Positions 103 through 53,560 of a DNA stretch of 64,000 bases are shown here, piece after piece. Numbering within the stretch: position 1 is the first letter of the stretch; each line of letters opens with the position of its first letter. The DNA is from Octopus sinensis. Its lineage: Eukaryota. The notes under the pieces are model-generated. The model saw only the letters and a list, made by a program, of their open reading frames with translations. It had not been told where the DNA came from and did no database searches. Made by a program: the position numbers and the translations under genes. The stretch is taken from the NCBI RefSeq assembly GCF_006345805.1, contig NC_043016.1:10788001-10852000 (forward strand). The letters run 5' to 3'.

Positions 103-428
103 AAGCATTCCCCACATTCAGAAATCTCTCACAGTGACATTTCCATGTATATATGTATGTATGTATGTATCATCGGAAAGAAGAAGCACACTTTAAGATG
201 TAGAGCAGTATATATTAAAAATAGGGAAGGTCGGTTTATGGAATTATCTTTGGTTTCCAATCCATAAAGGGTCCATGACAGATCATAGGCTTACAAAGTT
301 TTGGGATCTGATGATACGCTCTAAAGGTAAACCCTTTATGGACAAGAAACCTAAGGTAATCCCATAAATCGGTCTTCCCATTTATATATATAGAAATACA
401 CACACACACACACACATATATATATATG

Positions 429-459
<31 letters not shown>

Positions 460-562
460 GTATATATATATGTGTTGTGTTCTTGAGCAAGGCACTTTAC
501 CCTTTATATATATGTATACCCTTTATATATATGTATATATATATATATATACAAAAAATAGT

Positions 563-812
563 AGTTGACTGGCTTCTGTGCCGGTGGCACGTAAAAAGCA
601 CCAACCGATCGTGGCCGCTGCCAGCCTCCCCTGGCACGTAAAAAGCACCCACTACACTCACGGAGTGGTTGGCGTTAGGAAGGGCATCCAGCTGTAGAAA
701 CACTGCCAGATCAGACTGGAGCCAGGTGCAGCCTCCTGGCTTCCCAGACCCCGGTCAAACCGTCCAACCCATGCTAGCACAGAAAACGGATGTTAAACGA
801 TGATGATGATGA
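563..812 (+). mobile_element. RTE-tail-derived short element (very abundant family)
   Basis: GGCGTTAGGAAGGGCATCCAGCTGTAGAAAC...GTTAAACGATGATGATG. Further copies at ~6170-6530, 12607-12900, 33185-33550, 34420-34600, 39757-40010, 46157-46346, 46936-47040, 47830-48078, 48566-48848, 50986-51280, 55190-55400 and 55920-56250. Confidence 0.85.
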
Positions 813-888
813 TATATATATATAATAAAGTCCTAAAAACTGTTTAGTGTAAAAAACTATGAAGAAAGAGAAATTAAGATGAAAGGAA

Positions 889-1120
889 TTAATTTACTCT
901 GGACTTCAAAGATTTCAGGTCATAAGAAGGGGGAAAACAATGAGATGGAAGAGAGTTGAAAAGTCTGGCAGTTTGAGGGGAAAAAAAGCTAAGACTGTAG
1001 AAAGACTTTCTTATTCTTGGAAGCAGAACAGAATTTGGATGAGAATGCTGTATCAGGTGAGTTGGCACAGAGTGATCTGGAGGGTTTTGAGAAGACTGCA
1101 TGAAGCTTATGAGGTGTAAT
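889..1120 (-). mobile_element. LINE (Jockey/CR1/I group) RT C-terminal fragment
   Basis: SFFSPQTARLFNSLPSHCFPPSYDLKSLKSRVN*, a typical LINE ORF2 ending. Confidence 0.7.
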
Positions 1121-1537
1121 AGATTGAGACATGTCCATTGCTGCTGCTGTCTCTTATCTGCAAAGTTCATATTCTTCCTAATGTCTTTTTGCATGTATGT
1201 AGGAGTTGAGGGGCTGCAGAAAGTGGGGATGGGGTAGGACAGTCAATCAAAAAAATATTTGTGGACATTTATGCGGGTCATTCGAACACAAGACAGCTAA
1301 AAAACAACCACGTGGATTCTGTTGAGACTAGTAAGAAACAATTATGAACTTTTTTATTACACTCAACTTGAAATTTACAGCTATTATACCTTCATCACTT
1401 CATACTATTTTTTCCTGGGTCTACCTCTTCCACACCTTCCTTCCACTGGTAGAGATTGGTACTTCTTCACTCAGCTGTCCACATCCATATGCATCACATA
1501 ACCATATATATATCAAAGACAGGTGTAGGAACAATAA

Positions 1538-1952
1538 GGCAGTGAGCTGGCAGAAACATTAGCACGCCGGGCGAAATGCTTAGTCGTATTTCGTCTGCCT
1601 CTACATTCTGAGTTCAAATTCCGCCGAGGTCGACTTTGCCTTTCATCCTTTCGGGGTCGATTAAATAAGCACCAGTTATGCACTGGGGTCGATATAATCA
1701 ACTTAATCCGTTTGTCTGTCCTTGTTTGTCCCCTCTGTGTTTAGCCCCTTGTGGGTAGTAAAGAAATAGGTATTTCGTCTGTCTTTACATTCTGAGTTCA
1801 AATTTCACCGATGTCGACTTTGCCTTTCATCCATTCGGGGTCGATTAAATAAGTACCAGTTACGCACTGGGGTCGATGTAATCGACTTAATCCGTTTGTC
1901 TGTCCTTGTTTGTCCCCCTCTGTGTTTAGCCCCTTGTGGGTAGTAAAGAAAT
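1538..1952 (+). mobile_element. tRNA-derived SINE family A with a duplicated body
   Basis: Head GGCAGTGAGCTGGCAGAAAC..GAGTTCAAATTCC (A/B boxes), core GCCTTTCATCCTTTCGGGGTCGA; TSD aggtgtaggaacaa at 1521 and 1953. Other copies at 2425-2655, 5186-5417, 11642-11858, 41775-42005(-), 42600-42808(-) and 63450-63617. Confidence 0.88.
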
Positions 1953-3173
1953 AGGTGTAGGAACAACAAGCAAGTGTATTAGTTTAATGCTCGGGAAGAA
2001 TGGTAAAGTCTTTTACATTTCAAGCCTGCACTCTTCGACAGAAAGGATTAATAGGGGAAAAAATGGAGAGAGAATGGAAAAAAAACAGAGAGAAAAAAAA
2101 TTATTTTGTTGAGATTTATGGTCCAACATGATGAAATAGCCAGAAGAAAAAAGGCTGAATGAAAGGGAGATAATGACAGTGACCCGGTCGAATGAATTTG
2201 TTCTTGCACACATGTGTGCATATGAGAAGGGTGTATGTATGAATGAGGGTGAGGGTGTGAGTATGTATGTGTGGGTGAGCTGAAAAATATGTGGACTTGT
2301 GTGTGTATGTGCGTAAGTGACCCAGTGCATACATTACGTGGAGTGATATGCATTACATGTACTGGTATGTATGTGTGTATGCATATGGATGTGTGTAAAT
2401 ATATGTGTGCAAACGCATATATTAAGGCGGCGAGCTGGCAGGAACGTTAGCGCACCGGGCGAAATGCTTAGTGGTATTTCGTCTGCTGTTACGTTCTGAG
2501 TTCAAATTCTGCTGAGGACGACTTTGCCTTTCTTCCTTTCGGGGGTCGATAAATTAAGTACCAGTTACGCACTGGGGTCGATATAATCGACTTACTCCGT
2601 TTGTCTGTCCTTGTCTGTCCCCTCTGTGTTTAGCCCCTTCTGGGTAGCAAAGAAATATATATGTGTGCAAACGCATTGCCATGGGTGTGTGTGTGTATGC
2701 GTACAAATAACATAGTGTATGTGCTATGCGTTTTGTGTATTTGTGTGCACATGTATGGATGTGTGTATATGCATGAGCATACATATGACATGTGTATATG
2801 TGTGAGGTTAACATGTGTGTGTGTGTGGGCATGTGTAAAAGCTTGAGTTCAGCAGTTGATAAGTGCTTGTTCAGGTGGTGTGAGCACATGTGTATGTGTG
2901 TGTGAATGTAACCATATAGTGCACATGTGTACGGTGTATGTGGGCAAAAGTTATCTGTGTCTATGCATGTTGCATGTGTTTATAATCTAAGCAATCACCA
3001 CAGTAACTCTTCTTAGAAGGGGATGGCAGCGTAAAGGCTACACCTTCGAATCACGCAAAGAATGCTTGGTTATATTTCTGCTAATTTTTATAGAAGCACT
3101 CTACAAATCCAAGGCATGTGTACCAAATACATATGTTATAATATTCACACATTAAATAAGATGATTTGTAAAT

Positions 3174-3294
3174 CAAATTAAAATGCCTGATGAAATGAAC
3201 TGGCTCTAAATTTATTATATACCATTGCATAACTTTTGATTATAATATAAAATGAATGCTGTCGTTCATTGAAACATACATAATATAAATTTGA
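3174..3294 (+). ncRNA. Decayed hammerhead motif (probable Penelope 3' end)
   Basis: CTGATGA(3187-3193)-aatgaac...gttcatt-GAAAC(3271)-atac-ata, consistent with CpG-decayed GAAACGTACGTA. Confidence 0.5.
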
Positions 3295-3319
3295 CTTTTC
3301 TATTACTTAATTAAAATTG

Positions 3320-3352
<33 letters not shown>

Positions 3353-5414: not shown

Positions 5415-5454
<40 letters not shown>

Positions 5455-8180: not shown

Positions 8181-8228
8181 GTTATATATGTGTGTGTATG
8201 TATGTGTATATATATATACATATATATA

Positions 8229-8282
<54 letters not shown>

Positions 8283-8284
8283 AA

Positions 8285-8618: not shown

Positions 8619-8640
8619 ATATATATATGTATATATATAT

Positions 8641-8691
<51 letters not shown>

Positions 8692-9009
8692 ATATGTATA
8701 TAATATATATATATATATATACTGCATTAAATGAAGTAACAGTGACAAATGAAAATTCTGTAAACGATAATAATAATTATAAGCTTAAAGCTCATAAATG
8801 TTCACCATGTATTGGCTAAAGAAAATAGTTTAATATTGGGGCCTTGACAGAAAAAAATGGGTATTAGTATTTATGGTTTGATTCCCATGCATACTAATAC
8901 CAACTCTTTTCCGTCGAGATCTTATATGCCCCAGTATTAGACTATTTTCTTTAGTCATTACATAGCAAATGCCTATAAGCTTTAGGTTTATAATAATTAT
9001 TATTATGTC

Positions 9010-11624: not shown

Positions 11625-12307
11625 TATATATAAACTACAATGGGCGGCGAACTGGCAGAAACGTTAGCACGCCGGGCGAAATGTGCAGCCGTATTTCGTC
11701 TGCCGTTACGTTCTGGGTTCAAATTCCGCCGATGTCGACTTTGCCTTTCATCCTTTCGGGGTCGATAAATTAAGTACCAGTTACACACTGGGGTCGATAT
11801 AATCGACTTAATCTGTTTGTCCCCTCTGTGTTTAGCCCCTTGTGGGCAGTAAAGAAATATATATATAAACTACAATACTTATGTGAAAATTACTTGTTTT
11901 CGTACAGTATTTTAATTTCAAAAAGTAAAATAAATAATTAAATGTGGAGGTTGGACTTCTACATGCAGCTAAGTACTATTGTGCAAGAAATGAGATCTAA
12001 TTCATTACCAACTGATAATAATGACTGTCAATCCCATCAAGGGCATATTCGCAAACGAGCACAGCCATCTTGAATAAATTACTGAATTTTTCAATGCATT
12101 GGCTTAATGTGTATTAAGACATACATCATGTCATTGTTGTTTGACAGTATATGAGATGACCTGGTGTCAAGCAACCAGGAGGTCATCTCATACTGAGAAG
12201 TGTGATGAAAATCGTTCCAGCAATGTCCATTCTGTGTATCGCTGCCCCCACACCCCTTCAGATATTGTGTATCTAGAATAGATATTCTTTATATCTCCCG
12301 GGTGGGA

Positions 12308-12496
12308 GATGGGCTGAATCCTGGAAGTACTGCAATACCAGGCGAACCCGTGGCAAAGGCGGAGCAAGCCCCTAACACTTCGCCTCGTTCTAAAAATCAG
12401 TTTAATATCGATGGCCCCAAATAGGGACCGTATCAGATATTAAGCTGATAAGAACAGATACTACACTTTGATCTTAACCAAAAGGCCGAGAAGCGT
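12308..12496 (-). ncRNA. U2: U2 snRNA, full-length copy (variant or retropseudogene)
   Basis: Minus strand reads CGCTTCTCGGCCTTTTGGTTAAGATCAAAGTGTAGTATCTGTTCTTATCAGCTTAATATCTGATACG..., with branch-pairing GTAGTA, Sm-like GATTTTTAG and stem-loop IV CTGGTATTGCAGTACTTCCAG. Confidence 0.93.
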
Positions 12497-13145
12497 GTAC
12501 ATTTTCTTTTAATAAATGATAGGATATAGTTTGAGAGAGATTTGGTTGTTATTTCTAACAGGTAGATCTTTCATGTAGAGACTTTAACAGTCATTATGTT
12601 GTTCCCTCATCATCATCATAATTTAATGTCCATTTTCCATGCTGGCATGGGTTGGACAGTTTGACAAGAGCTGGCAAGCTACACCAGGTTCCAGTTACCT
12701 CTTTTGGCATGATTTCTATGGCTGGATGGCCTTCCTAAAGCCAACCATCTTACGGAGTGAATGGAGCACTTTTTATGTGGCACCAGCACCAGTGCTTTTT
12801 ATTTGGCATCAGCACAGGTACTTTCTACATGGCACCAGTACAGGTGCTTTTTACATGGCGCCATCATAGATGCTCTTTATGTAGTATCAGCACCAGTGGG
12901 GGTCACCAAGTAGCTTGCGAGAAAAAGGTTTCTCGGCTGAGAAGGGGAGTGGAACCAAAAGAAATGACTGCGTGCCAGGCAAGAGGTTTATACCAAAATC
13001 AATTTACTGTTGAGTGTTCGTGGATGCATCACTGTAAAATTCTTCACTTACCAATTATTAAACAAATAAATATTCAGTTATGCAAATACCATCTGACTAA
13101 CAAACAAATACAAATACAAATACAAAAATACATTTGTATCTAAAT

Positions 13146-14633: not shown

Positions 14634-15509
14634 TCTACTACTTATGTGGAAATCTGTGGGTGTGTTTGTTTGTGGCATCGTTATCTAACTCTTCCTACAT
14701 CATTTTATCAATTTTGATGAAACTTGACACATGAGTAGAACCCATGTCTGGAAAAACTAGTGACATACTTAGATTGTTGAAAAAAATCAATAGAAGGGGC
14801 CCCTGCAAGGGATTTTTATATCTACTACATATAACTAATATATTATTTTTAAATATCAAAGGGAAATAACTCATTAATGTTCGTAAATTATTTTATATAA
14901 ATCAAATTCAGTATGCTTATTTCTTATTTGAACTATTTGTGTTATTTTCACAATTTATCAAGTACAACACTTAAAGTAGTAAATAGTATTTTCCTAAACA
15001 ATAGATCCACTTATTTCAGTTAGTTACTTATTCACAAATATACCAACACTAGTGCCACTGAGGGTAATATTCTCTGCAAATACACAAAAACTTTTTTCAA
15101 AGTTATTAACTTTGAATTGTTATTATCTCATATCTGATTAGCTTGTTATTATGTAACATACTTCACGATTTTAGTATACATACATTATTAGTATTTCCTC
15201 CTACATTCTATATACTCTGGGAATGTACTAAAGCCCTTTTTGGGGCTATTTTATTTGAATTCTTACTATTGGGTAATTAATTTCATGTTATTACATAAGT
15301 GACTTCACAATTTGGGTGTTCATAACTTATTGGGAATTTCTAAAAACAAGATCCTTTGTAAGACAGTTTGGTATTCTCAATAAATGAACAACAACCGTTT
15401 TAAGGGCAACATACTTTGTATTGTTATTACTAGATTAGTAAAACAATTGTGAGAACAGAACCAAGGGATAAGCCCTGATTTCCCGAGAAATACCAGGTAC
15501 ATCAGCTAG
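14634..15509 (+). mobile_element. Non-autonomous Helitron inserted in a family B SINE
   Basis: 5' TC start after A; 3' cccgagaaataccagg hairpin remnant plus CTAG|T. An inverted copy of the same family lies at ~40360-41060. Confidence 0.7.
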
Positions 15510-16313
15510 TAAATATATATGTTTACTAGCTGATGTACAGACTTCTTTCAGTTTCTGTTGACTAAATCTACTCACAAGGCTTTGGTTGGGCCAAGGTCAT
15601 ACTAGAAGGCATTTGCCCAAGGTTTCACACAGTGGGACTGAACCCAGAACCATATGGCTGAGAAGCAAACTTCTTATCTCACAACCATACCTGAATGAAT
15701 CAAATCTACGCACATATACATTAATGACCAAAACTTATATTTTATCCCCTCATTGTGCCACTACCACCACCACCACCACCCATCCTCAGGCCTTACACTA
15801 ATCACTATACTCTGAATCCCTTCCTCTCCAAAACATCACCATTGTGCTCTCTTTTTTTGTAAAGTTCAAGAGGAAAACATCAGACTCACTGGTGTAGGAA
15901 GATTTGCAAAGATCAGAGGCATTGCCTTTTCCTCAAGACTCAGCAAGAATAAAAAGAATAATGGTGATTTGAAATAAGGTGATATACTTTACTGGCCATT
16001 GAGGATGTGGCATAAAAGCTGCCCAATGTGGACCTTCTCCAAAACTTGGAACTCCTGGAAATGGACCACCATTTACATCAATGCTTTCATCAGCTACCAT
16101 CATTTACAACCTAACTTTAAAGCTTGATCAAGAGATCTCTGTCTATCTACCTTGTCAGCCAACCTACCTACATACTTCCCTCTCTCTCTCTCTATATATA
16201 TATATATATTACTCTACTCTTTACTCTTTTACTTGTTTCAGTATATACATATATACATGCACTAGCACTATGACCCGGCAACAATGGGTCTTTAATGCTA
16301 GTATATATATATA

Positions 16314-16698: not shown

Positions 16699-17861
16699 TA
16701 TAGATATATATATATAATCAGAAAATGGAGAAAACCTTAGATCAACAAGCACATCAATTGAACTATATTTATTGCTTAATATTTAATACAGAACATGGCA
16801 TAACATTTGTGTCACATAATTGTTATGCCATGTTCAATTTATGTCACATAAACGCTATGCCATGTTCTGTATTAAATAATAAGCCATAAATGTGGTCCAA
16901 TTGATGTTCTTGTTGATCTGAGGTTTTCTCCTTTTTCTGATTATTTGTATTTGTTTCCTGATAAACTTTTGTTTATTCTGTTATTACCTGTACTCTACGA
17001 GCATAGCGTACCTGCATACCCATGCCCTGAAATAACATGGATAACAGATACAGATATTATAATTGCTAACTCTGCTTACATTTATATATATATAGGAGTG
17101 GCTGTGTGGTAAGTAGCTTGCTTACCAACCACATGGTTCCAGGTTCAGTTCCACTGTGGGGCACTTTGGGCAAGTGTCTTCTACTATATCCTCGGGCCAA
17201 CTAAAGCCTTGTGAGTGGATTTGGTAGACGGAAACTGAAAGAAGCCCATCATATATATGTGTGTGTGTCTGTTTGTCTGTGTTTGTCCCCACCCCACCTA
17301 CATCACTTGACAACCAATGCTGGTGTGTTTACGTCCCCGTAACTTAGCGGTTTGGCAAAAGAGACCGATGGAATAAGTATTAAGCTTACAAAGAATAAAT
17401 CCTGGGATCGATTTGGGTGACTAAAAGCGGTGCTCCTGTATGGCCACATTCAAATGACTGGAACAAGTAAAAGAATAAAAGAATTATAGGTCACTCTGCC
17501 ACAGATTCAGAATATCCAATCCACTTTTTCTGCTACTGGAACAATTAGGATAAACTGTAAATAATGGATAATTATTTGGAAGATTGGGAGATTGGAAGAA
17601 TGGAGTAGCTGAACTCTTATAAAGAGTAGCATATTGGGTGAGACAAGAGGTCGGCAGGAATCACTGAGAGGGCGTTTTGGAGTCTTGTGAAGTACATTGA
17701 TTTTTACTTTCGTTTTGTTAATTATATATTCAACATTTGCCAAGGATATAAAAGTTCCTCACCAAAGTCTGCTCCAGCTCAGCAAATTTGACTGAAAAGT
17801 GACATTTAACAATTCCAGCAACAAATAACAACCAGTAACCGAAATAAATTGTACTAATACC

Positions 17862-18445
17862 TATTTCTTTACTACCCACAAGAGGCTAAACACAGAGGGG
17901 ACAAACAAGGACAGATATGGGTATTAAGTCGATTACATCGACCCCAGTGCGTAACTGGTACTTATTTAATCGACCCCGAAAGGATGAAAGGCAAAGTCGA
18001 CCTCGGCGGAATTTGAACTCAGAACGTAACGGCAGACGAAATACCTATTTCTTTACTACCCACAAAGGGCTAAACACAGAAGGCACGAACAAGGACAGAC
18101 AAATGAATTAAGTCAATTACATTGACCCCAGTGCGTAACTGGTACTTATTTAATTGACCCCGAAAGGATGAAAGGCAAAGTCGACCTTGGCGGAATTTGA
18201 ACTCAGAACGTAATGGCAGAAGAAATACCTATTTCTTTACTACCCACAAAGGGCTAAACACAGAGGGGAAATGAATTAAGTCAATTACATTGACCCCAGT
18301 GCATAACTGGTACTTATTTAATCGACCCCGAAAGGATGAAAGGCAAAGTTGACCTCGGCAGAATTTGAACTCAGAACGTAATGGCAGACGAAATACCGCT
18401 AAGCATTCTCGCTCGGTGTGCTAACGTTTCTGCCAGCTCACCACC
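17862..18445 (-). mobile_element. tRNA-derived SINE family A with a triplicated body
   Basis: One head plus three ~180-bp body units; 13-bp TSD ttgtactaatacc at 17849 and 18446. Confidence 0.9.
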
Positions 18446-18737: not shown

Positions 18738-21700
18738 TCATCATCATCATCATCGTCGTTTAACGTCCGTTCTCCATGCTAGCATGGGTTGGACGGTTCG
18801 ACCGGGGTTCTGGGAAGCCAGAAGGCTGCACCAGGCTCCAGTCTAATCTGGCAATGTTTCTACAGCTGGATGCCCTTCCTAACGCCAACCACTCCGTGAG
18901 TGTAGTGGGTGCTTTTTACGTGCCGCCTGCACAGGTGCCAGGCGGGGCTGGCAACGGCCACGGTCAGATTGGTGTATTTTATGTGCCACCGGCACGGAAG
19001 CCAGTCGAGGCGGTGCTGGCATCGGCCACGAGTCGGATAGTGCTTTTTACGTACCACCAGACCAGGGATCCTGGCTGGTTCAATTCGATTTCGATTTCGC
19101 TTGCCCCAACATGTCTTCACAAGCAAAGGGGGTGGTTGCATGGGTGCCTGTCGTACGGTCGCATTGGAGTATTTTACGTGCCACGGCCACGAGTCGGATA
19201 GTGCTTTTTACGTACCACCAGACCAGGGATCCTGGCTGGTTCAATTCGATTTCGATTTCGCTTGCCCCAACATGTCTTCACAAGCAAAGGGGGTTGGCAT
19301 GGGTGCCTGTCGTACGGTCGCATTGGAGTATTTTACGTGCCACGGCACGAGTCGGATAGTGCTTTTTACGTACCACCAGGCCAGGGATCCTGGCTGGTTC
19401 AATTCGGTTTCGATTTCGATTCGCTTGCCCAAACATGTCTTCGCAAGCATGGGGGGTTGGCATGGGTGTCTGTTGTCGGATGAGGTTCTATATCGACTTC
19501 GCTTGCCTCAACCGGTCTTTGTGTCCAAGGGAGGAAAGGCATTCATAAGTGGGCTGGGCTCACTTGTCCTGCCTGGTCTTCTCACGTACAGAATATTTCC
19601 AAAGGTCTCGGTCTCGGGTCATTTCCTCAGTGAGGCCTAAAGTTCGAAGGTCGTGCTTCACCACCTCGTCCCAGGTTTTCCTGGGTCTACCTCTTCCACG
19701 GGTTCCCTCAACTGCTAGGGATTGGCACTTTCTCACACACCTATCTTCATCCATTCTCGCCACATGACCATACCAGCGCAATCGTCTCTCTTGCACACCA
19801 CAACTGATGCTTCTTAGGTACAACATTTCTCTCAAGGTGCTAACGCTCTGTCGAGTATGTACACTGACATTACACATCCATCGGAGCATACTGGCTTCAT
19901 TCCTCACGAGCTTACGCATGTCCTCAGCAGTCAGGCCCATGTTTCGCTGCCATGTAGCATGGCAGTTCGTACACACGCATCATACAGTCTGCCTTTTACT
20001 CTGAGCGAGAGGCCTTTAGTCACCAGCAGAGGTAAGAGCTCCCTAAACTTTGCCCAGGCTATTCTTATTCTAGCAGTTACACTTTCAGCGCACCCACCCC
20101 CACTACTGACTTGGTCACCTAGATAACGGAAGCTATCAACTACTTCTAGTTTTCCCCTGGAAAGTGACGGAAGTTGTTTTCTCAGATTTTCGGAGGTTAA
20201 TGCTCCCGAGCATCTGCCACATACAAAAGCTATCTTCCCAGTTAGCCTACCTTTGACATTGCTGCACCTCTTATGTGTCATAGCTTACACTGGTACATCT
20301 TATAGAGTTTCTACCTACACCTTTTCTACAGATCGAGCAGGGCCATCTTCCTGAAGATATTTGTGGATTGTCTACCTTTCTACTTATTAGTACTTTGGTT
20401 TTAGCTAGGTTGACTCTAAGGCCCCTTGATTCTAAACCCTCCTTCCACACCTGGAACTTCTCCTCCAGTTCTGATAGTGACTCAGCAATAAGAGCAAGGT
20501 CGTCAGCGTAGAGGAGCTCCCAGGGACAGCCTGTCTTGAATTCCTCCGTAATTGCCTGGAGTAGTATATGATAAATAGGAGGGGGCTGAGTACTGAACCC
20601 TGGTGGACCCCAACCTCTACTTTGAATTCTTCTGTGTACATGTTGCCAACCCTAACCTTACTTACGGCATCTCTGTACATGGCTTGCACAGTCCTCACCA
20701 GCCATTCATCTATCCCTAGTTCCTCATTGACCACAAGATAAGGGATCGGGGGACCCTATCAAAAGCTTTCTCCATGTCAACGAAAGCCAGGTACAGGGGC
20801 TTATCTTTGGCTAGGTATTTCTCCTGCAGCTGCCTTACCAGGAATATAGCATCAGTGGTACTTTTCCCTGGCACGAACCCAAACTGCATCTCATCTAAAC
20901 TAACTCTCTCTCTAATTAGTTGGGCTATGACCCTCTCCGTAACCTTCATTACTTGATCCAACAGCTTGATACCTCTGTAATTGTTGTATCTAGGCATCAC
21001 CTTTACCTTTGTAGCAGTTGACTAGTATGCTGCTGCACCAGTCATGGGTATGACTCCTTCGTGTATCACCTGGTTGACTATACGGGTGACTAGGTTATAG
21101 CCGACACTGCCAGATATTTTGAGCATCTCTGCAGTAATTCCTGATGGGCCTGGGGCTTTCCCTGTCTTCATGCTTCTAATTGCCTTAGCTACCACGGAAC
21201 TATCAACTCGGATAGCTGGTCCCTCTGTAGGGTCAACATTCGGCAGACTCTCTTATCCCATTCATTTTCCTCATTCAGTAACCTTTCATAGTGGCGTCTC
21301 CAAGCTTCTCTCTTTGCATCCTCATTTAGCGCAAGTGAACCATCCTCCATGCGAACACATTTCTCTCCTACCACATCACGATTCTCTCTCACACACTGTC
21401 TTGCAACACGAAATACCTCAAGTCTTTCATCCTCACGGCGCAGGACATTGGCAAATTTTCTCTTATCTGCTTCCCCTCTGGCTAGATAGACCCGTCTCCT
21501 AGCTTCCCTTCTGGCAGTCTGATACCCTTCCCTGCTACCACCGTTCTTCCAGGCCTTCCAAGCCTGTTTCTTTTGTCTAATAGCCCTGTCAACAATATTG
21601 TTCCACCACCACGTTATTTTGGGTCTTAAGGGGACTTTGCACCAGCCACAGATCTGGTCACGGCTTTCAGCAGGTTGTCCTCAGAAACGTCCTCCAGTTG

Positions 21701-23147: not shown

Positions 23148-23198
23148 TTTGTCAGTGAACAGGTCGCGGTCTTAAAGCGATGAAAATATTTTGACAAA
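23148..23198 (+). ncRNA. Hammerhead-like motif with G3:C8 swapped core
   Basis: tttgtca-GTGAACA-g gtcgc(ggtcttaaa)gcgat-GAAAATATTT-tgacaaa. Stem I is a perfect 7 bp; stem III AATATT is palindromic. Confidence 0.55.
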
Positions 23199-23344
23199 TT
23201 AAACTTAAATGTTGAAGTGAATCGAACGGCTTTTGTGTGTTCATATATATATATATATATATACTTTATTTAAAGCAGCAGAAAATTCAACAAAACCTGT
23301 TACTCTGAGTTTCCCGTTGCCGTTCATCGGACAGTTTTTTCTAG

Positions 23345-23394
23345 CAAAAACTGTCCGATGAACGGCAACGGGAAACTCAGAGTAACAGGTTTTG
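23345..23394 (+). ncRNA. Minimal type I hammerhead motif (mirrored on the minus strand at ~23291-23340)
   Basis: caaaaactgt-CCGATGA-a cg GCAA cg g-GAAAC-tcaga-GTA-acaggttttg. Stem I 9/10 bp, U4C core variant, palindromic stem III. Confidence 0.7.
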
Positions 23395-23549
23395 TTGAAA
23401 TTTCTGCTGCTTTAAATAAAGCATATTACTCTACCACTGGTATTTGAGTACTTTTTTTCCACCTTGTTTCACATTTATGTGTTTACTCCGGTTATATATA
23501 TATATATATATATATAATATAATATATATAATATATATATTATATATAT

Positions 23550-37233: not shown

Positions 37234-39010
37234 TCATCATCATCATCATTTAGCGGCTGTGAAGCCAGAAGGCTGCACCAGGCTCCAGTCTGATCTGGCA
37301 GTGTTTCTACGGCTGGATGCCCTTCCTAACGCCAACCACTCCACGAGTGTAGTGGGTGCTTTTTACGTGTCACCGGCATGGAGGCCAGATAGGGCGGCGC
37401 TGGCAATGGCCACGAATGGATGGTGCTTTTTACGTGTCACCGGCACGGAGGCCAGTCGGGGCGGCGCTGGCAATGGCCACGATCGGATGGTTCTCTTACT
37501 TATCACCAGCACTGGTATCACAGCCGCAATTTCCATTGATGTTGATTGACATTGATTTTGGTTCTGCTTTCTGATATCTGATTTGATTTTGATTTTGATT
37601 TTGATTTTCACTTGCCTCAACGGGTCTTCACAAGTGGAGTTTTGTGTCCCAAGAAGGAAAGGTATGTATAAGTCGACTGGCTACATACCAGGTAGAGGCC
37701 ACGGGTTATGGTCTCACTAGTCTTGCCAGGTCTTCTCACGCACAGCATACTTCCATAGGTCTCGGTCTCTAGTCATTTCCTTGGTGAGACCTAAAGTGCG
37801 AAGGTCGTGCTTCACCACCTCGTCCCAGCTTTTCCTGGGTCTACCCACCTCTTCACAGGTTCCCTCAACTGCTAGGGTGTGGCACTTTTGCACACAACTA
37901 TCTTCAGCCATTCTCATCACATACCATACCACGCAAACGTCTCTCTTGCACACCACAATTGATGCTTCTTAGGTCCAACTTTTCTCTCAAGGTACTTACA
38001 CTCTGTCGATTATGAACATTGACATTACACATCCATCGGAGCAATACTGGCTTCATTTCTTGCGAGCTTACGCATATCCTCAGCAGTCACGGCCCATGTT
38101 TCACTACCATGTAGCATGGCTGTACGTACACATGCATCATACAGTCTGCCTTTTACTCTGAGCGAGAGGCCTTTTGTCACCAGCAGGGGTAAGAGCTCTC
38201 TGAACTTTGCCCAGGCTATTCTTACTCTAGCAGTTACACTTTCAGCACCCCCACCCCCGCAACTGACTTGGTCACCTAGGTAGCGGAAGCTATCAACTAC
38301 TTCTAGTTTGTCTCCCTGGAACGTGGTGGAAGTTGGTCTCTGCACATTTCCAGTGTTTATTGCTCCTGAGCATCTGCCACAGACAAAAACTATTTTCCTA
38401 GTTAGCCTTCCTTTGACATTGCTGCACCTCTTATGTGTCCATAGCTTACACTTGGTGCACCTTATAGTTTTTCTACTTCTACCTACACCCTTTACAGATC
38501 GAGCAGGGCCATCTACCTGAAGTCGTTTGTGATTGGTCTACCTTCCTACTTATTAGGACTTTGGTTTTGGCTCGGTTGATTCTAAGGCCCTTCGATTCTA
38601 ATCCTTGCTTCCACACCTGAAACTTCTCCTCCAGTTCTGATAGTGACTCAGCAATTAGAGCAAGGTCATCAGCATAGAGGAGCTCCCAGGGGCATCCTGT
38701 CGTGAATTCCTCCATTATTGCCTGGAGGACTATGATAAATAGGAAGGCACTGAGGACTGAACCTTGGTGGACCCCAACCTCTACCCGGAATTCTTCACTG
38801 TACTCGTTGCCAACCCTCACCTTACCAGCAGCGTCTCTGTACATGGCTCGCACAGCTCTCACTAACCATTCATCTATCCCTAGTTTCCTCATTGACCACC
38901 AGATAAGGGATCAGGGGACCCTGTCGAAGGCTTTCTCCATGTCAACAAAAGCCAGGTACAGGGGCTTATCTTTGGCTAGGTATTTCTCCTGCTGCTGTCT
39001 TACCAGGAAT
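37234..39010 (-). mobile_element. RTE-clade LINE, 5'-truncated
   Basis: FVDMEKAFDRV, GVHQGSVLS, WELLYADDLAL, FRYLGD, LHGSETW, GRPRKSWDEVV; same family as 18738-22237. Confidence 0.93.
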
Positions 39011-44967: not shown

Positions 44968-45029
44968 TTATTTTCTTGTATAAACTTGGTTAATACGAGT
45001 CTTAGAAGCTTCTGAGTAGCTTTGAAAAC
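44968..45029 (-). CDS. CEP104: CEP104-like exon (TOG)
   Basis: tctttag|VFKATQKLLRLVLTKFIQEN(AA|gtatgt); 62 nt, phase 0-2. Confidence 0.85.
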
Positions 45030-45047
45030 CTAAAGAAAAAGATATAC

Positions 45048-45082
<35 letters not shown>

Positions 45083-47051
45083 TATAAAATAACAGTTCTC
45101 ACTTGTTACTGTCACACTGACTTTATGGTTTACAAAGAGAGAGAAAAATATAAGAAAAACGTAATTATCATTTAATCCTGGTTTCCCCACCCCATTGCAA
45201 AAAGGAAATGAATGTAAAAAAAAAAAAAATCCAATTATAACTTTCTTTTTCTTCATCCTGAAAATAAAGAAAGAAATGTGGGTGGATGATAAACGGAAAA
45301 AAAGAAAGAAAAAAAAAAGATAAAGCAAATCTGGAATTGTCGTTCTTTACAAACTGAAGAGCAAATAAGTGTCAGTTACTCGAACAAGACGAATAGGGAA
45401 TAATTTTGTTCAGCTAACTGATCCGATTGTAAACAGAGGAAGCCATATAATCCCGAGTGCTTGAGATGTTGTTTGAATAATCAGAAATTTTGATAATTAG
45501 GTAATAGGTGCTTGCATAACCAAAACTTGTCTGTGTGTATATAGATGTATATATAAATATGTACATGTGTGTGTGTGTGCGTGTGTACAGATGGAGATGA
45601 GTACCAATATCTCAATGAAGCAGGGTTGATAATTGCTGGGAATTCTCAGCATGAAACCAATGGTAGCCTTGTCTGTCCAATATATGTCTTGTTTTGAATA
45701 TCATTTCATTTGTATATAGCTTATTTATTTCATATTTGTATGTTCACTTTCTGTCATGTTTGGTCTCTTGTTCATAGGCTCACTATTTCCCAGTGGCTTC
45801 TCATCACCAACACCACCAAAGAGGAGCAATATTAGCGTTAAAGGTGTGAAATTGCTGAGATCCTTTGGCTGATAACTGATGAGGATTTGGCAACTTTCTG
45901 TGTGTCTGTTTTCCATTTGTTTGTGCTTATATATATATTGTCTTTTAACTTATTATTTAACGGAAAGCTACACATTGTCTTTCATTTTGTTTACACTAAG
46001 TGAATTTATAAATATATATTATTTTTTTGTGGAATGGTGAAATTCGAAACACACATAAAGCTATAAATAACAGTGTGTGAATGACCCCTTAGAGACCATT
46101 TTCCGTCCGTCCATCCATCCCTGAATGCGTGCGTGCGTGCATGCATACATACATACATCATCATCATCATCATCATTTAGCGTCCGTTTTCCATGCTAGC
46201 ATGGATTGGACGGTTTAACTGGGGTCTGTGAAGCCGGAAGGCTTCATCAGGCCCAGTCAGATTTGGCAGTGTTTCTACGGCTGGATGCCCTTCCTAATGC
46301 CAACCACTCCATGAGTGTAGTGGGTGCTTTTTACGTGCCACCTGCATATTATACATACATATCATATTAAGAGGTACGACATAATATCCAGGCAGATACC
46401 GAATTGCTCTGAGTAAAAAGCCAAGGCTGGTGCTTTCAGATCATGCATTTTATGGAAAATTTCCTTTAACTCCCATCTGGTGTTACAGTTTTTCCTGGTT
46501 ACTTAGAGTGTAAAGTACAATATTGATAACAAGGAGAATGAAGAATTTGAACATTCAAACGTAATGTTTATTTACAGTTGGTTTATTCATAATAATATTC
46601 TGACACGTGTTTTGAACCACATTAAATGCATATCGTTGCATATTTATATGCACTGATTTATGCATTATAAGTATGATCTCTTCAGGGTGTATAGATATGA
46701 CATTGTTCGAAGAGAATTTTCAAACTAATAATGCAAGAAAATTCCTCTTCGAAAAATGTCATGTTTATACACCCTGAGGAGATTGTACTAATAATGCATA
46801 AATTGCTGCATATAAATATGCAACAATGAACACAATTGAAACACATGTTGCACAATTATCATGAATAAACCAACTATAAATAAACAATGTTTGAATGTTC
46901 AAATTCTTCATTCTCCTTATTATCAATATCATATATCATCGTCGTCATCATCGTCGTTTAATAACGTCCGTTCTCCATGCTAGCATGGGTTGGACGGTTT
47001 CGACCGGGGTTCTGGGAAGCCAGAAGGCTGCACCAGGCTCCATATATATAT

Positions 47052-47089
<38 letters not shown>

Positions 47090-48123
47090 ATACATATAAT
47101 ATATATATACATATATATATATATGAATAAATGAAAGAATGGAGTCGATCAAAGATTTTAAACAAATTTCCTTTACTTTCAACACATGTTTCGAAGACTG
47201 CATACTCTTAATTCCGATTATCCATACTAGGATAATTCATTCACCTACTTATATATATATATTATATATATATATAATATTAAGGAGTGTAACTCCAAAC
47301 TTAAGGAAAAAATCATTTAGTATTAAATCAAATTTCACAATATAAATATATAATATATAAATTAGAGAAAAACCACTAATATGTAATTCAAACAATGATA
47401 GACATAAACCAAATCATGAAGAAAAATAAAATATATTATAAAATATATAACTAGATCACAAAAATTACAAAAAATGAATAAACAATATAAGTAATAAGTA
47501 ATTGTTATTAATTTTTTGTACTTTTTGTGATCTAGTTATATATTTTATAATATATTTTATTTTTTCTTTATGATTTGGTTTGTCTATCACTTTTTGAATT
47601 ACATAATAGTGGTTTTCCTCTAATTTATATATATATATATATATTTAAATATAATAGTATATGAAATATACACGGAGAGAAAACCATCATGTGGATTTCT
47701 TACATGCTAAAAATGGCAGTCAAAGCCCAAAACCACAAAAAAATCATTCTTACATTAAAAAAAACTCTTTCACTTGCAAAGTTATTGCCATGCATCCACT
47801 AGTTTCAGTTGATAGTCATAGATGTTTACATCTATGACACGTAAAAAGCACCAACTGATCGTGGCCGTTGCCTGCCTCCTCTGGCCCCTGTGCTGGTGGC
47901 ACATAAAAAGCACCCACTACACTCACGGAGTGGTTGGCATTAGGAAGGGCATCCAGCTGTAGAAACACTGCCAAAATCAGACTGGAGCCTGGTGAAGCCA
48001 GTCTGGCTTTCCAGACCCCGGTCGAACTGTCCAACCCACGTTAGCATGGAAAACGGACATTAAACGATGATGATGATGTGTTTTCTGTACGTATTTTAGT
48101 GTCATATTTATACATTTTACAGC

Positions 48124-48221
48124 GACCTTACTGACGAGCTATGGATGACCAATTAATCAGTTAATTAACTTATTAGTTAATTTATTTGGTCCTTAATGGT
48201 GAAACTCATGGGTATAAGGTC
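48124..48221 (+). ncRNA. Type I hammerhead ribozyme motif (complete)
   Basis: gacctta-CTGACGA-long stem II (gctat..gacc aa...ttggtc..atggt)-GAAAC-tcatgg-GTA-taaggtc. Stem I is a perfect 7 bp; stem III ACTCATGGGT is near-palindromic. Confidence 0.85.
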
Positions 48222-50061
48222 AACTGAAATTTTTATTCACTCAAAAGTCTTGCTCATGTACAAGCAACGTGCTTTAATGTAAGAATGTTTTTTTGTGTGG
48301 TTTGGGGCTTTGACTGCCATTTTTAGCATGTAAGAACTCCAAATGGTGATTTTTCTCTTCGTGTATGTGTATGTGTGCATGAGTGTGTACATGTATATAT
48401 GTGTACATGCATATATATATATATATATATGTGTGTATATACCTGTTTTCCTCACATACTGTTTATATCGAAAAATATTTATGTCTTCTAACTTTTATTA
48501 TGCATACTAACCACCGGTATAAAATATTTAATAATTTTTACCCTTGTATTTATAAGTTATATATATCGCCGCCTCAACGGGCCTCCTTGCCGGTGGCACG
48601 TAAAAAGCACCATCCGATCGTGGCCGTTTGCCAGCCTCGTCTGGCACCTTTGCCGGTGGCACGTAAAAAGCACCCACTACACTCACAGAGTGGTTGGCGT
48701 TAGGAAGGGCATCCAGACATAGAAACATTGCCAGATCAGACTGGGCCTGGTGCAGCCTTCTGGCTTCCCAGACCCCAGTTGAACAGTCCAACCCATGCTA
48801 GCATGGAAAACGGACGCTAAATGATGATGATGATGATGATGATGATGATATAAGCAAAACATTTAAACATTGAGATTTAAAATCAGATGTCACTACTGTT
48901 CATATCATCTGTGGATAAATTTTAAAATTGATGATATCACCAGCAGTGTCATGCTTGGATCGCAGGCGCAATAGCATTAAATAGCTATGAATTATAAATT
49001 TGTACGAAGAGTTAGGATGCTTAACAAGCATCCACCTGCTAGAAATAAGAGCTAAAGTCTTAAAGTTATCCACCGTACCGCACCAAGATAACAGAGAAAA
49101 ACAGTATGCGAGGAAACAGATACATACACATATATATATATATATATACAGATACACATATATATTGTGGGAAATAGTTGAGATGGTAAACATTTTTAAT
49201 TTTCATTCCTTTCGTGAATTTATCCTTTTTTGTGGTCTTGAGATTTCTACTGCTCTTTCTAGCACAACGCTTTCCTGTTTGGAAAACTCTTATTGTATTT
49301 CTATACACATATATATACATAAATATACACATATATACATATACACACACATGCACACATACACACTCATCTACATACACCAATACACACATATCAATCA
49401 ATCAAACACCAGCATAAATGGATTTTCACAATCAATTCTTAAAATTTGTTTTTGTATTTACACAAGTACTTCATGGACTTTGTAACAACCATCACTGAGC
49501 ATTTTTATATAGTAACAGTTGCCTCTAGCTAAGTATATACATAGCAACTAACTCTCTTACTCTTTTACTTGTTTCAGTCATTTGACTGCGGCCATGCTGG
49601 AGCACTGCCTTTAGTCGAGCAACTCGACCCCGGGACTTATTCTTTTTGTAAGCCCAGTACTTATTCTATTGATCTCTTTTTGCCAAACCGCTAAGTGACG
49701 GGGACGTAAACACCCAGCATCGTTGTCAAGCAATGCTAGGGGGGACAAACACAGACACACACACACATATATATATATATACATATATACGACAGGCTCT
49801 TTCCAGTTTCCGTCTACCAAATCCACTCACAAGGCATTGGTCGGCCCGGGGCTATAGCAGAGACACTTGCCCAAGATGCCACGTAGTGGGACTAAACCCG
49901 GAATCATGTGGTTGGTTAGCAAGCTACTTACCACACAGCCACTCCTGCGCCTAACTCTAGATGAATACTTAAATGAATATTAACTTAAAATACCTGGCAA
50001 CAGTGACAACAACTAAATACTATCATTAAATAGCTACAGAAAAATAACATTTACAGCATTA

Positions 50062-50392
50062 CAGTAATACCTTGCCTTATTGCAGTTCACCTATCGTGGT
50101 TCACCTTTCACAGTTCGTTATATTTAGGCTTACAACGATTCTTCTCTGGTGTTGCTTTGCATTTATAATAAATTAAATCTTTTCCTTTCTTTTTTTACTT
50201 GTTTCAGTCATTTGACTGCGGCTATGCTGGAGCACCGCCTTTTAGTCGAGCAAACCAACCCTGGAACTTATTCTTTTTTAAGCCCAGTACTTATTCTATC
50301 GATCTCTTTTGCCGAACCGCTAAGTAACAGGGATGTAAACACACCAGCATTGGTTGTCAAGCAATGCTAGGGGGACAAACACAGACACACAA

Positions 50393-50429
<37 letters not shown>

Positions 50430-50711
50430 CATATATACGACAAGCTTCTTTCAGTTTTCATCTACCAAATCCACTCACAAGGTATTGGTCGGCCCGGGGC
50501 TATAGCAGAAGACACTTGCCCAAGATGCCACGCAGTGGGACTGAACCCGGAACCACGTGGTTGGTTAGCAAGCTACTTACCACACAGCCACTCCTGTGTA
50601 CAAATTATAATTAAAAAACAAAACAAATAAAGTACTGTTTCTACTTTGCGGATTTTCACCAATCGCAGGGGATTTGGGAACATGACACCCTTATTAGTTG
50701 AGGGATTACTG
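50062..50711. mobile_element. pogo/Tigger-like MITE containing a SINE
   Basis: ta|cagtaatacctt ... gagggattactg|ta termini. Confidence 0.6.
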
Positions 50712-50771
50712 TACTCCTTTCTTTCTAGTGAATGTAATTTCCAAATTAAAATCAAATTCAGTGCAGCATTC

Positions 50772-50983
50772 CTATCCATTCGAAACTGGTTTCAACTTCT
50801 CAATAAAACTCTTCTATTTTACTCTTTAAATAACTTCATTTGAGTTATAAAGCTTATAAAGTGGAAATCCAAAGAAATTTTTATTGCAGTATGTTTTTAA
50901 ATGGGTACCGAAAGGGATATGTCAGATCTGAAGTACCATAATCTGCTGCTGGTGTATTTCTGTGTTCTGAGAGTAAATTTCCT

Positions 50984-51019
<36 letters not shown>

Positions 51020-53560
51020 GTTTAACGTCCGTTTTCCGCGCTAGCATGGGTTGGATGGTTTGACCGGTGTCTGGGAAGCCAGGGGCTGCCCAGGCTCCAG
51101 TCTGATCTGGCAGTGTTTCTACAGCTGGATGCCCTTCCTAACGCCAACCACTCCATGAGTGTAGTGGGTGCTTTTTACGTGCCACCGGCACAGGTGCCAG
51201 GGGAGTCTGGCATCGGCCACGATCGGTTGGTGCTTTTAACGTGCCACCGGCACGGAAGCCAGCCAAGGCGGCGCTGGCTTCTGATGAATATATATTTTTT
51301 CACAAGTCAAGCAGTTAATACTGTACATTAGGTTTCTGCCCTGAGGTTCATATTTACACGTGTTAATATTTGTCCTTCAGTTTAAGTGTTGATATAATGA
51401 TCAACATATTTAAATTGATTGGCACTAAAACATTTGTCATTGCACTTAGATATCATGAAGTTTTTGTTACTGTTATTTAAATTGAATTTTTCCTTTGTCA
51501 ACTTTTGTTTTGAGTTTTTGTCATCTGCTTTGAACAAGCTGGTAATTAAATTCTTTAATTTATCACTTTGATAATTTGGTAACATTAAATGTATTACTGT
51601 TCTGTGAATTTGGGTCATTACAAAAAGTAATAAATCTTGGTTCTAAGTTCTTTTTGGGGGGGTTGAGGTGGGGGGTCACTCAGAGTTATTTCATGAACAT
51701 TTGTATTACATAATCAATACCATTTTGTATAAGTAAGAGAAGGTATTTTTGCTTCTTTCTTTTATTTCTTTTATATGTTTCAGTCATGAAACAGGAGTTG
51801 TAGCCATGCTGGAGCACAAAGTAGAAATCCCATGACTTCAGTGGGTCAGTTTTCTCTAAAATTCCATCATCAACAATAAAATCTCCTGGCTAGACAGGAT
51901 GCTACATTTTGCATATACTAAGTGGTATAATTTGAAGCTCCAACATGTGTCTGTTTTTTGGTTGTTGGTTTCTTATAATAGTGTATATCTATTGTGATAT
52001 TGGTGAAACTTTTAATTACCGTTTTTGTTGAGAAGTGGTAATTTTGAAGCACTCATCTCTTTTATAAATTTTGTAGTGACGCTATTTTGGAAGTCTTCAG
52101 CACGCATGTGCAGAGTTGAATTACTTCCGGTAGGCCACCGGAAGTTCCCTCATGTGCATGTGCAGAGAACTACCAACAGAAAGATTTCCTGCTGGATCTG
52201 TCTTTTTCGAAGCAGCAGCCGAATTGAGTGGACACGACTCAAGGTTCTCTCAAGCAAGCCAACACATAGAGAAGCTCCTTCTATGCTGGAATGAGACAGC
52301 ATTTGGCTCACACAAGTTAACTAATGTGACTAGTTTTGCCCTGAAGGAAATATATGTATATATATCATTTGCGAATCCAGAAAAATAAATATTTATTGCT
52401 GTTGAAGATATTCGAAGTCTTGGTTTTCCTTCCAACAAATAATTTAATGTAACAGCATAAGGCCAGCACCCCTCAAGTGTTCCAGAGACCTTCATCCTTG
52501 TTACAATTTCAAGGCTTGCAATAAATTGTGCACATGGACGCTGAAACATCTACAAATTTTGTCCAAATTAGAAAACAGCCAGAAAGAAAATCTTTCCATG
52601 TGCCCTCAATATATCTCCTAAATTTAGTCACAGTTTTCCATTACATTTTGATATAGTTTTGTTCCAAGTTTCCCATTACTGGGGTTGCCTATTCTAGATC
52701 AAATTTGGTTCCCATGGCAGCATCTCTAATTTGTAGATAATTTTCCTTACTGAAAAAAAAAAGTATTGTTCTCAAGAAAAAGGCCGATACTATCTAATAT
52801 AAAGTCTATGGTGAATCTACTCAGAATCACTGCATGTATTTTGGCACAATATTTGATTACTGTAATTCTTAAATCATGTGGAATATTCAAGTAGAGGCCT
52901 ACTACATCAAAATGAACCAACAACAAATATGTTCCTGTTATTTTGGATAATTGCAACAGGAAATCAATGTCATGCCTAATAAAACCTTCTCATGGTTATA
53001 GCAATTTTACATATTCACCACCTACTTCTTTCACTGCATTATTAATTTCCTTGACCAATGTATTCTCTGTAAGCCATATTAGTTGCCAGGCTTTAGTTCA
53101 ATATTGATAAGGCAATCTTTTTCCTCAGCAGTAAATGAATTATGATGATTTAAAACCAATTTTGCAGAGCTGCTTCACAATACAATGATGTATATTTGCA
53201 GGCATTTCTAAATAAAAGGTTATATTTCCCAGTTGATCCTCAGCTAAATGTTGATAACATTCATCACTTAATATGTCAAAAGCACCATTTTTAGAAGCAT
53301 GGCTGGTGACTCTTGTTTCATCGTTTTGGAATTGTTAAAGGTGCAACCTTCTCTGATTTGATAATATTTTGTCGAACATAAGTATTCTGCTTAATTTGGA
53401 GGTTTGCAAAGCATATCAATATATTGGTGTGGAGGAATATTTCTTGTTTCTGTTGGGGTGTATTTTGATTCATTCCTAACCAGATATTCATCAGACTCAC
53501 TATTTTCATCGACAAAAATCTCAACCAATCATAGTTTATAACAGAATTTGTAGATATCCT
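50772..53560 (-). mobile_element. Decayed Penelope-like retroelement (RT + GIY-YIG endonuclease)
   Basis: Fragments in order: FIRHDIDFL; FDVVGLYLNIPHD; FLENNTFFF; YLQIRDAAMGTKF; WKDFLSGCFLIW (RT5); KFIKEMSASKLPLL; TIDIHYYKKPT; KLTKEKF..SKCNDKC; NLMYSINCLTCEKIYI (GIY-YIG); IHQQQI..IPFGTHLKTYC..FPLYKL..FIEKLKPVSNG*. Many stops and frameshifts; interrupted by a solo LTR and an RTE-tail repeat. Confidence 0.85.
52072..52505 (+). mobile_element. Solo LTR (Gypsy-like) inserted in the Penelope RT
   Basis: TGTAGT...GTTACA termini, 4-bp TSD ATTT (52068-52071 and 52506-52509), internal AATAAA at ~52384; the Penelope protein motifs resume on both sides. Confidence 0.7.

Follow-up and report, generated by a model that had tools for sequence, protein, structure and literature searches.

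Eight inverted repeats, named el1 to el8, lie in the window analysed here, a stretch of 64,000 nt from the Octopus sinensis genome (contig NC_043016.1, positions 10,788,001 to 10,852,000). In all likelihood, these fold-backs are single insertions made by the reverse transcriptase (RT)/GIY-YIG endonuclease (EN) of Penelope-like elements (PLEs), in which two 3' ends are placed head to head; el3, el5 and el8, whose units lack an open reading frame (ORF), would have been copied in trans. An earlier note on the same DNA had described the repeats as one ORF-less class of hammerhead ribozyme elements, possibly spreading as independent units, with a decayed PLE of the window as their partner.

The inverted repeats are found at or near the places where they had been noted. 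Alignment of the arms gives 81-96% identity (52/62 to 202/210 matched columns; 21/22 in el3), and a BLAST search of the window against itself recovers seven of the eight at E 6e-16 or better, el3 being missed by this search. The boundaries given earlier were right in place and too short in extent, because the supposed unpaired tail is part of the element. The extension of one arm only was described correctly: exactly one arm is tailed in all eight window copies. The elements are also unrelated to one another, as had been stated, with no BLAST match among the eight family references in an all-against-all comparison.

First-look searches of the genome containing the window (G000, 2.72 Gb) returned 1,378 candidates for el1, 554 for el2, 2,112 for el3, 370 for el4, 1,080 for el5, 348 for el6, 2,237 for el7 and 248 for el8. 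These totals are not copy numbers, because 40 candidates were scored per search. With hundreds to thousands of candidates per family (248-2,237), the arms are therefore multi-copy, and the single-copy case named in the earlier note is excluded.

Insertion anatomy

The ends were mapped against one natural reference copy per family, positions being counted from the predicted hammerhead cleavage site. In every family the 3' ends form two sharp classes, short and tailed. They lie at about +36 and +90 in el1, +119 and +278 in el2, +90 and +147 in el3, +42 and +110 in el4, +161 and +283 in el5, +82 and +236 in el6, +171 and +235 in el7, and +170-180 and +260 in el8, where the classes are fuzzier. 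The 5' ends and the head-to-head junctions vary from copy to copy, and many family copies are single-armed with a 5' truncation. Fixed 3' ends, variable 5' truncation, an adjoining inverted copy and a one-sided tail are the hallmarks of PLE insertion.

The two end classes are combined in a highly regular manner. Short and tailed arms are paired in 130 of 140 classifiable fold-backs from seven families, with two short arms in 6 and two tailed arms in 4, while 50% of mixed pairs would be expected if the arms were independent (binomial p 4e-28). The el3 fold-backs were counted separately because the el3 query contained the tail; 26 of 28 were of the mixed type (2 further rows were dropped). One el4 query likewise selected tailed arms. 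The bordering of the elements by (TA)n, reported before, is upheld by counting: (TA)n adjoins 182/248 short ends and 175/267 tailed ends (357/515 combined), compared with 165/1,890 random positions of the same loci, the adjacency count being inflated because some element ends are themselves TA-rich.

With an el4 query placed behind the cleavage site, 29 of 30 arms continue through the site, and 14 of the 30 stop between -47 and -32, the 5' edge of the ribozyme. Among arms found with queries lying wholly behind the site, the 5' start falls behind the site in 1/30 for el4, within -5..+18 in 11/30 for el7 and within -1..+11 in 6/28 for el2. A reading of the 5' ends as marks of in vivo ribozyme cleavage is not supported by any sharp signal, there being no peak at +1. 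The clusters of el7 and el2 behind the site are soft, and that of el7 is at most a weak hint of cleavage.

Families with their own ORFs

PLE calls were made with tblastn and a small profile built from six EN pieces of the el1 family. In el1 copies, the coding sequence of a C-terminal GIY-YIG EN lies directly upstream of the el1 end, which is present in 18 of the 20 loci found with this coding sequence; two of the loci (L406, L398) continue into the RT via an N/S-rich linker. For el4, both arms of a symmetric head-to-head copy of ~5 kb (L378) contain RT (E 1e-16) and EN (E 2e-7 and 8e-9). An el2 locus (L370) has a same-strand RT 2.5-3 kb upstream (E 7e-7) and an EN recognised by eye; an inverted el2 end stands directly before this RT. 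The link of el6 is to EN only, the C-terminus of which is collinear upstream in L080 (E 1e-5), L441 (2e-8) and L446 (6e-4) and was recognised by eye in L433 and L445.

Since el1, el2, el4 and el6 run upstream into PLE-type RT and/or GIY-YIG sequences, they are, as judged from the sequence, truncated insertions (3' ends) of their own ORF-bearing PLE families. The question raised earlier, whether copies extend into PLE ORFs, is answered positively for these four families, and the eight do not form a single ORF-less class of fold-back units. Members of the el7 family have AT-rich, non-coding sequence in common over 2.2 kb or more upstream, and el7 is perhaps a truncated head-to-head PLE insertion as well.

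The ORF of the el1 family (L391-L409) was also seen to contain a long N/S/T-rich insert between RT and EN, similar to the N-rich inserts of Adineta Penelopes.

Tandem families without ORFs

The units of el3, el5 and el8 repeat head to tail, and no ORF of their own was found in them. In 13 of 31 el5 loci, the tail leads into another hammerhead at a spacing of 473-482 nt; no ORF lies between them, and up to 5 hammerhead motifs stand in a row. The el5 arrays are spread over many chromosomes, are about 99% identical and have the same two fixed ends in (TA)n. The el5 monomer is predicted to fold at -134.8 kcal/mol (z -8.6), none of 100 shuffles being as stable. ORF-less arrays of el3 have a unit of ~170 nt and up to 7 units, spaced mostly by 162-196 nt with a (TA)n spacer; single el3 copies mostly begin near -58, and only microsatellite-rich sequence was seen upstream of them. 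For el8, ORF-less partial tandems with a unit of ~535 nt occur in the 2 long loci examined.

ORF-less head-to-tail units with one hammerhead each resemble non-LTR retrozymes (LTR, long terminal repeat). The three families are therefore likely, on the evidence of their organisation, to be retrozyme-like, non-autonomous and protein-free dependants of PLEs. The label "ORF-less retrozyme-like" given earlier to all the elements stands for el3, el5 and el8 and falls for el1, el2, el4 and el6, which have their own ORFs. Sequencing contigs of four runs cover these units only in part, with no run on record as RNA, and strand, ends and circles are not readable from contigs.

As a separate observation, several el3 arrays are near neighbours on contig C30, where el3 arrays and an el5 unit are mutually nested at about 12.11 Mb (L176/L539, G000:C30).

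Hammerhead motifs

A type I hammerhead with a palindromic stem III is predicted in the family majority of all eight families, 40-180 nt before the short end. The core tested was C3 U4 G5 A6 N7 G8 A9 / G12 A13 A14 A15.1 / U16.1 H17 together with stems I-III, and it is present in all eight majorities. The PLE type of the elements, proposed in the earlier note, is supported. The note had counted five hammerheads in the window; the motif is indeed present, in six copies (el1, el3, el4, el5, el6 and el8). In the window, el2 and el7 are truncated shortly behind the cleavage site, both el2 arms starting 7-8 nt behind the predicted site, but their families retain the motif.

All ten core bases are present in 42/71 distinct motif-spanning arms of el1, 23/29 of el2, 24/30 of el3, 74/93 of el4, 28/30 of el5, 24/52 of el6, 29/38 of el7 and 19/37 of el8. 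Mean conservation at the ten core positions is 0.93-0.99, compared with 0.86-0.99 in the flank, and is clearly above the flank only in the older families el1, el2, el6 and el8. Each family has its own sequence in stems I and III, and the stems pair in every one of them. This pairing in spite of unlike sequences is the real covariation evidence for the hammerhead. Within-family compensatory changes are rare, and stem I next to the core has just 2-3 bp in el2, el6 and el7.

The window copies are in various states of preservation. The el1 hammerhead has an intact core and decayed stem II ends. That of el4 has a U4C core, shared by 64% of arms in its family, and a stem II of 2-3 bp with a GNRA cap. 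The core is damaged in the right arm of el5. In el3, the core pair is exchanged for a reciprocal G3-C8 pair, G3 being present in 100% of 30 arms and C8 in 93% of them; G3-C8 was also found in 66 of 76 units, which were chosen by a pattern favouring it.

A strict descriptor requiring a palindromic stem III, designed after the families had been seen, finds 2 sites in the window versus 0.025 +/- 0.16 in 40 block shuffles. A looser descriptor finds 4 sites versus 0.5 +/- 0.9 in 20 shuffles, one of the four being inside an element. With stem II limited to 30 nt, the looser descriptor did not detect el1, el6 and el8. An Rfam scan of the window (E<=10) gave no hammerhead family among the 150 of 190 matches listed. 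Its microRNA matches on el4 and el5 were rejected, reflecting hairpins only. When the hammerhead stretches of the window were folded alone, el8 (z -3.2) and, marginally, el3 (z -1.9) were more stable than shuffles.

Proposed mechanism

The PLE RT/GIY-YIG enzyme would cleave a (TA)n target on both strands and start DNA synthesis from both ends. The two fixed 3' ends may correspond to two internal start sites of the RT, by analogy with the anole PLE in vitro. Synthesis on one target strand would begin at the near site and that on the other strand at the far site; the two cDNAs would stop early and be joined into a fold-back. The protein of the anole PLE is reported to cut and extend both strands of AT-rich DNA, to start internally at two sites, the interval between which is the tail, and to use uncleaved RNA as the template; it is predicted to be a dimer (PMC11167929). 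Continuation of 29 of the 30 el4 arms through the cleavage site, 14 stopping at the 5' edge of the ribozyme, is in line with an uncleaved template and with stalling at a structure. Head-to-head palindromes could alternatively arise by self-priming on an antisense template (PMC3846280).

In this scheme of two-end priming by a PLE enzyme, el3, el5 and el8 would be non-autonomous passengers (non-LTR retrozymes) copied in trans, and intact PLE ORFs that are candidates for acting in trans exist in the genome. The hammerhead would act in the source transcript of each family, probably as a dimer formed via its palindromic stem III. The el4 fold-back transcript is predicted to fold into one hairpin that buries the hammerhead in the arm-arm duplex. 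The fold-back copies of the window are therefore, according to the folding model, most likely dead and inert products.

A further claim can be made only tentatively, with a chance somewhat below even. The pairing of short and tailed arms would be the footprint of concerted asymmetric two-strand priming by a dimeric PLE; the same footprint on units of 170, 480 and 535 nt would be genomic evidence for PLE-inserted animal retrozymes; and el3 would carry a working G3-C8 hammerhead. If the last is true, a core known so far only as an engineered double mutant in the literature searched would function naturally.

Alternative explanations

Several results weigh against PLE insertion as the common origin. 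Pfam matched none of the five el1-family ORF pieces and nothing in three minus-strand frames of the decayed PLE of the window. For el2 and el4, between one and three loci each supply the ORF link, and their frames are decayed; no collinear el7 ORF was found within ~2.2 kb upstream in the loci seen. The limits of the short and tailed classes were chosen after inspecting the histograms, and 38 rows were excluded before the 140 fold-backs were counted: in 25 the coordinates repeated those of another row (real duplicates as well as some separate loci), in 10, all of el5, an arm entered the following tandem unit, and 3 of el8 had ends between the two classes. The sole long el4 copy seen, L378, stands outside this count and is tailed at both ends. 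The tails of about 55-160 nt differ from those of 30-40 nt reported for published EN-containing (EN+) PLEs (PMC3846280, PMC8557442). Core conservation is barely above that of the flank in the young families el3, el4, el5 and el7, so that selection within the family is not demonstrated there. Four of the six window hammerhead stretches, folded alone, are no better than shuffles. No autonomous partner for el3, el5 and el8 was found in the loci examined.

It is very unlikely that the fold-backs are themselves mobile, as one ORF-less class of hairpin ribozyme elements spreading as palindromes. Their abundance (32 junction rows in 39 el4 loci), the clustering of el4 5' ends before the hammerhead and the start of many el3 copies near -58 are in favour of such units. 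However, the junction position varies among copies, and a fold-back is therefore the product of one insertion event rather than a spreading unit; in addition, four families run into their own ORFs and the hammerhead is predicted to be buried in the fold-back transcript. Spreading of the fold-backs as independent units, which the earlier note had left undecided, is not supported. Both the inverted termini and the TA context found here are usual in miniature inverted-repeat transposable elements (MITEs) of the Tc1/mariner type. Together with the outcome of the Rfam scan, this could suggest MITEs or foldback DNA transposons bearing hammerheads by chance. Such an origin is extremely unlikely in view of the single-armed 5'-truncated copies, the RT/EN upstream in four families and the complete core with paired stems of differing sequence in all eight families and in an intact PLE family. 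The symmetric fixed terminal inverted repeats and fixed interior of a DNA transposon were not found, the ends being asymmetric and the junctions variable.

The remaining explanation concerns the tandem families: all eight repeats could be truncated ends of autonomous PLEs, with the tandems of el3, el5 and el8 being local satellites formed by unequal crossover and not mobilised in trans. One route proposed by Li et al. 2026 is that a PLE terminal sequence is amplified locally (bioRxiv 10.64898/2026.07.22.740005), and both the neighbouring el3 arrays on C30 and the lack of a partner enzyme in the loci examined agree with it. Local amplification is nonetheless quite unlikely, as nearly identical el5 arrays with the same two fixed ends lie on many chromosomes, and the el5 tail reaches the next hammerhead after 480 nt without an intervening ORF.

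Penelope relic and other features of the window

The coordinates of the elements, their hammerheads and the decayed PLE are collected in Table 1. In el8, the short left arm is followed by unrelated sequence that extends to about 48076 and contains a common interspersed repeat; the tail of the right arm is interrupted by a microsatellite.

Table 1. Fold-backs, predicted hammerheads and PLE relic of the window (positions within the 64,000 nt)
Feature	Position	Strand	Description
el1	177..392		Head-to-head fold-back; left (minus) arm tailed, right (plus) arm ending at short site; 3' end of ORF-bearing PLE family
el1 type I hammerhead	303..363	+	Stem I of 5-6 bp, stem II region of 31 nt, palindromic stem III
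el2	16708..17061		Fold-back; left arm short, right arm tailed
el3	23029..23241		Fold-back; tailed left arm from +29, without hammerhead; right arm with hammerhead, clipped at +50
el3 type I hammerhead	23149..23197	+	Reciprocal G3-C8 core pair, stem I of 6-7 bp, palindromic stem III
el4	23259..23492		Near-perfect fold-back; left end short, right end tailed; hammerhead in both arms
el5	25907..26417		Fold-back of ORF-less ~480-nt unit; left arm tailed, right arm short
el5 left-arm hammerhead	C3 at 26209	-	Core intact, predicted cut after 26176
el6	46378..46929		Fold-back; left arm tailed, right arm short; 3' end of ORF-bearing PLE family
el6 hammerhead	about 46772-46851	+	Long stem II; stems I and III partly decayed in the window copy
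el7	47279..47650		Fold-back; left arm tailed, right arm short; cut behind the family's hammerhead
el8	47639..48561		Short left arm 47639-47759; right arm with hammerhead and tail
el8 hammerhead	48125-48220	+	
Decayed PLE (RT and GIY-YIG)	50778..53588	-	tblastn with intact 775-aa ORF of locus L234, six pieces, E 3e-49 to 8e-7

The decayed Penelope with RT and GIY-YIG domains that had been noticed in the window was confirmed. It is broken by stops, frameshifts, a solo-LTR-like insert and a short interspersed repeat (about 51020-51270). In a search with an open stretch of this relic, 150 of 2,871 candidates were scored as matches, among them copies with open frames of 770-777 aa. The ORF of L234 scores above the curated Pfam cut-off for GIY-YIG and just below that for RVT_1. 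A CX2-5CxxC motif before GIY-YIG suggests that the relic and L234 are Neptune-type PLEs. The intact L234 family has its own hammerhead of the same layout ~490 nt after the stop codon, with the full core in 13 of 13 arms.

The relic had been regarded as the partner of the fold-backs. At the DNA level, none of the eight families matches the relic or the termini of its closest intact relatives, and it therefore appears, as far as such comparison goes, to be a bystander that is not linked to any of them. Some apparent links were rejected. Four BLAST rows of the eight families in 49 PLE loci are neighbouring insertions rather than PLE ends, and the PLE matches near el4 and el5 loci (L050, L036, L017-L019) are neighbours rather than collinear parts. 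A DNA search with the relic returned the inserted solo-LTR-like repeat rather than PLE copies. This repeat of ~460 nt (window 52071-52532) has TG...CA ends and, in several copies, 4-bp flanking duplications.

The loci L231-L240 (for example, L232:4477-5877 on the minus strand and L234:2787-5111 on the plus strand) represent a young PLE family with many open RT-EN frames of 770-777 aa. The RT-EN frame is preceded there by an overlapping open frame of ~450 aa without a Pfam match. The junction of the two frames lies in A-runs and differs between copies, which could be a frameshift or an assembly error.

A ninth fold-back, at 8720-9005, has a tailed left arm beside (TA)n and a short right arm; its family gave 1,066 first-look candidates. 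Several of its copies have a tRNA-like head (A-/B-box-like by eye) and no visible hammerhead. The family is possibly, from these sequence traits, a tRNA-derived short interspersed element inserted in PLE fashion. A U2 small nuclear RNA gene or copy lies at 12304-12497 on the minus strand (Rfam RF00004, 171 bits, full length), and a near-perfect 42-nt hairpin at 15497-15538. Fragments of a long-interspersed-element-type RT (RTE-like by eye) occupy 19563-21,680 and 38,028-38,910 (minus strand) in several frames. An interspersed repeat with 184-bp tandem units is found at 1586-1956 and 17856-18397 (2 and 3 copies, respectively), the two being mutually inverted.

Comparison with published systems

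The fold-backs mostly leave the existing picture unchanged, being described insertion products of PLEs and of their protein-free dependants. Inverted pseudo-LTRs (pLTRs) with a one-sided tail, targeting of (TA)n, hammerheads on opposite strands and retrozymes as dependants of PLEs are all already published. Of remaining interest, on sequence grounds, are the quantified asymmetry of the ends and the family-wide G3-C8 core swap in el3.

Inverted pLTRs with a one-sided tail, head-to-head palindromes and solo pLTRs were reported by Arkhipova et al. 2013 (PMC3846280). Tails at one end only and (TA)n targeting were reported by Craig et al. 2021 (PMC8557442), according to whom the way in which PLEs generate inverted ends and tails has yet to be explained. 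The elements described here share with such EN+ PLE insertions the head-to-head inverted ends, the one-sided tail, the 5' truncation, the (TA)n targets, the solo ends without an ORF and, in the el1-family ORFs, the N-rich linker inserts. Unlike in these accounts as far as they bear on insertion ends, the one-sidedness is counted here (130/140), and most copies here are very short stumps. Recently active Penelope families are listed in an octopus repeat annotation (PMC13282606). For annotation, it is relevant that such hairpins resemble MITEs or microRNA precursors, as in the Rfam matches on el4 and el5.

Pairs of minimal hammerheads on opposite strands were attributed to truncated PLEs (PMC4209133). 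Like the published minimal PLE hammerheads, those of el1 to el8 are of type I topology with a palindromic helix III and have one additional base on the 5' side of stem II; in both cases a single genome holds families of diverse sequence, and opposite-strand pairs lie 100-700 bp apart. Stem III has 3-5 bp here, which is closer to the Drosophila and rotifer variants than to other published examples, while the stem II regions of four families are very long by comparison (63-87 nt). The el3 core has G3-C8, in contrast to the U3-A8 core swap reported among the published minimal PLE hammerheads. G3-C8 is described as an engineered rescue mutant (PMC8495972, PMC3884650, PMC11167929) and U3-A8 as a natural core (PMC3088659). 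No natural G3-C8 hammerhead was found in the literature searched, only these engineered mutants and natural U3-A8, and one may already be listed in the supplementary material of PMC4209133, of PMC3088659 or of the bioRxiv preprint. If el3 is a natural G3-C8 hammerhead, standard descriptors overlook an abundant family.

Tandem hammerhead repeats are described as non-LTR retrozymes, with PLEs as the proposed helpers (PMC7229834, PMC7761336, bioRxiv 10.64898/2026.07.22.740005). The enzyme moving animal retrozymes is only a proposal so far in the latter two of these sources, and Li, Clavereau and Pollet 2026 report cleavage in just 1 of 9 dimers tested. With the metazoan non-LTR retrozymes of Cervera and de la Pena 2020 (PMC7229834), el3, el5 and el8 share a low GC content, a head-to-tail arrangement of ORF-less units (170-540 nt) that each contain one type I hammerhead, a strongly self-paired monomer (el5) and co-occurrence with PLEs. 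Here they are described from sequence and predicted folds. The two-end and inversion signature of PLEs, present on the arrays of these three families, was not found in what PMC7229834 says of retrozyme structure. Young ORF-less families bearing this signature are good substrates to test which enzyme moves retrozymes.

The Poseidon element PAc of Anolis carolinensis (Frangieh et al. 2024, PMC11167929) shares with the octopus families an AT-rich target and, putatively, two internal start sites that define the tail. In vitro, both strands are cut and extended by its protein on an uncleaved RNA template, with which the passage of 29 of the 30 el4 arms through the cleavage site may be compared. The start sites of PAc are a few tens of bases apart, and the account of them in that paper does not pair the two sites with the two arms of one insertion. 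The counted rule of one short and one tailed arm is a specific prediction for this existing in vitro PLE system.

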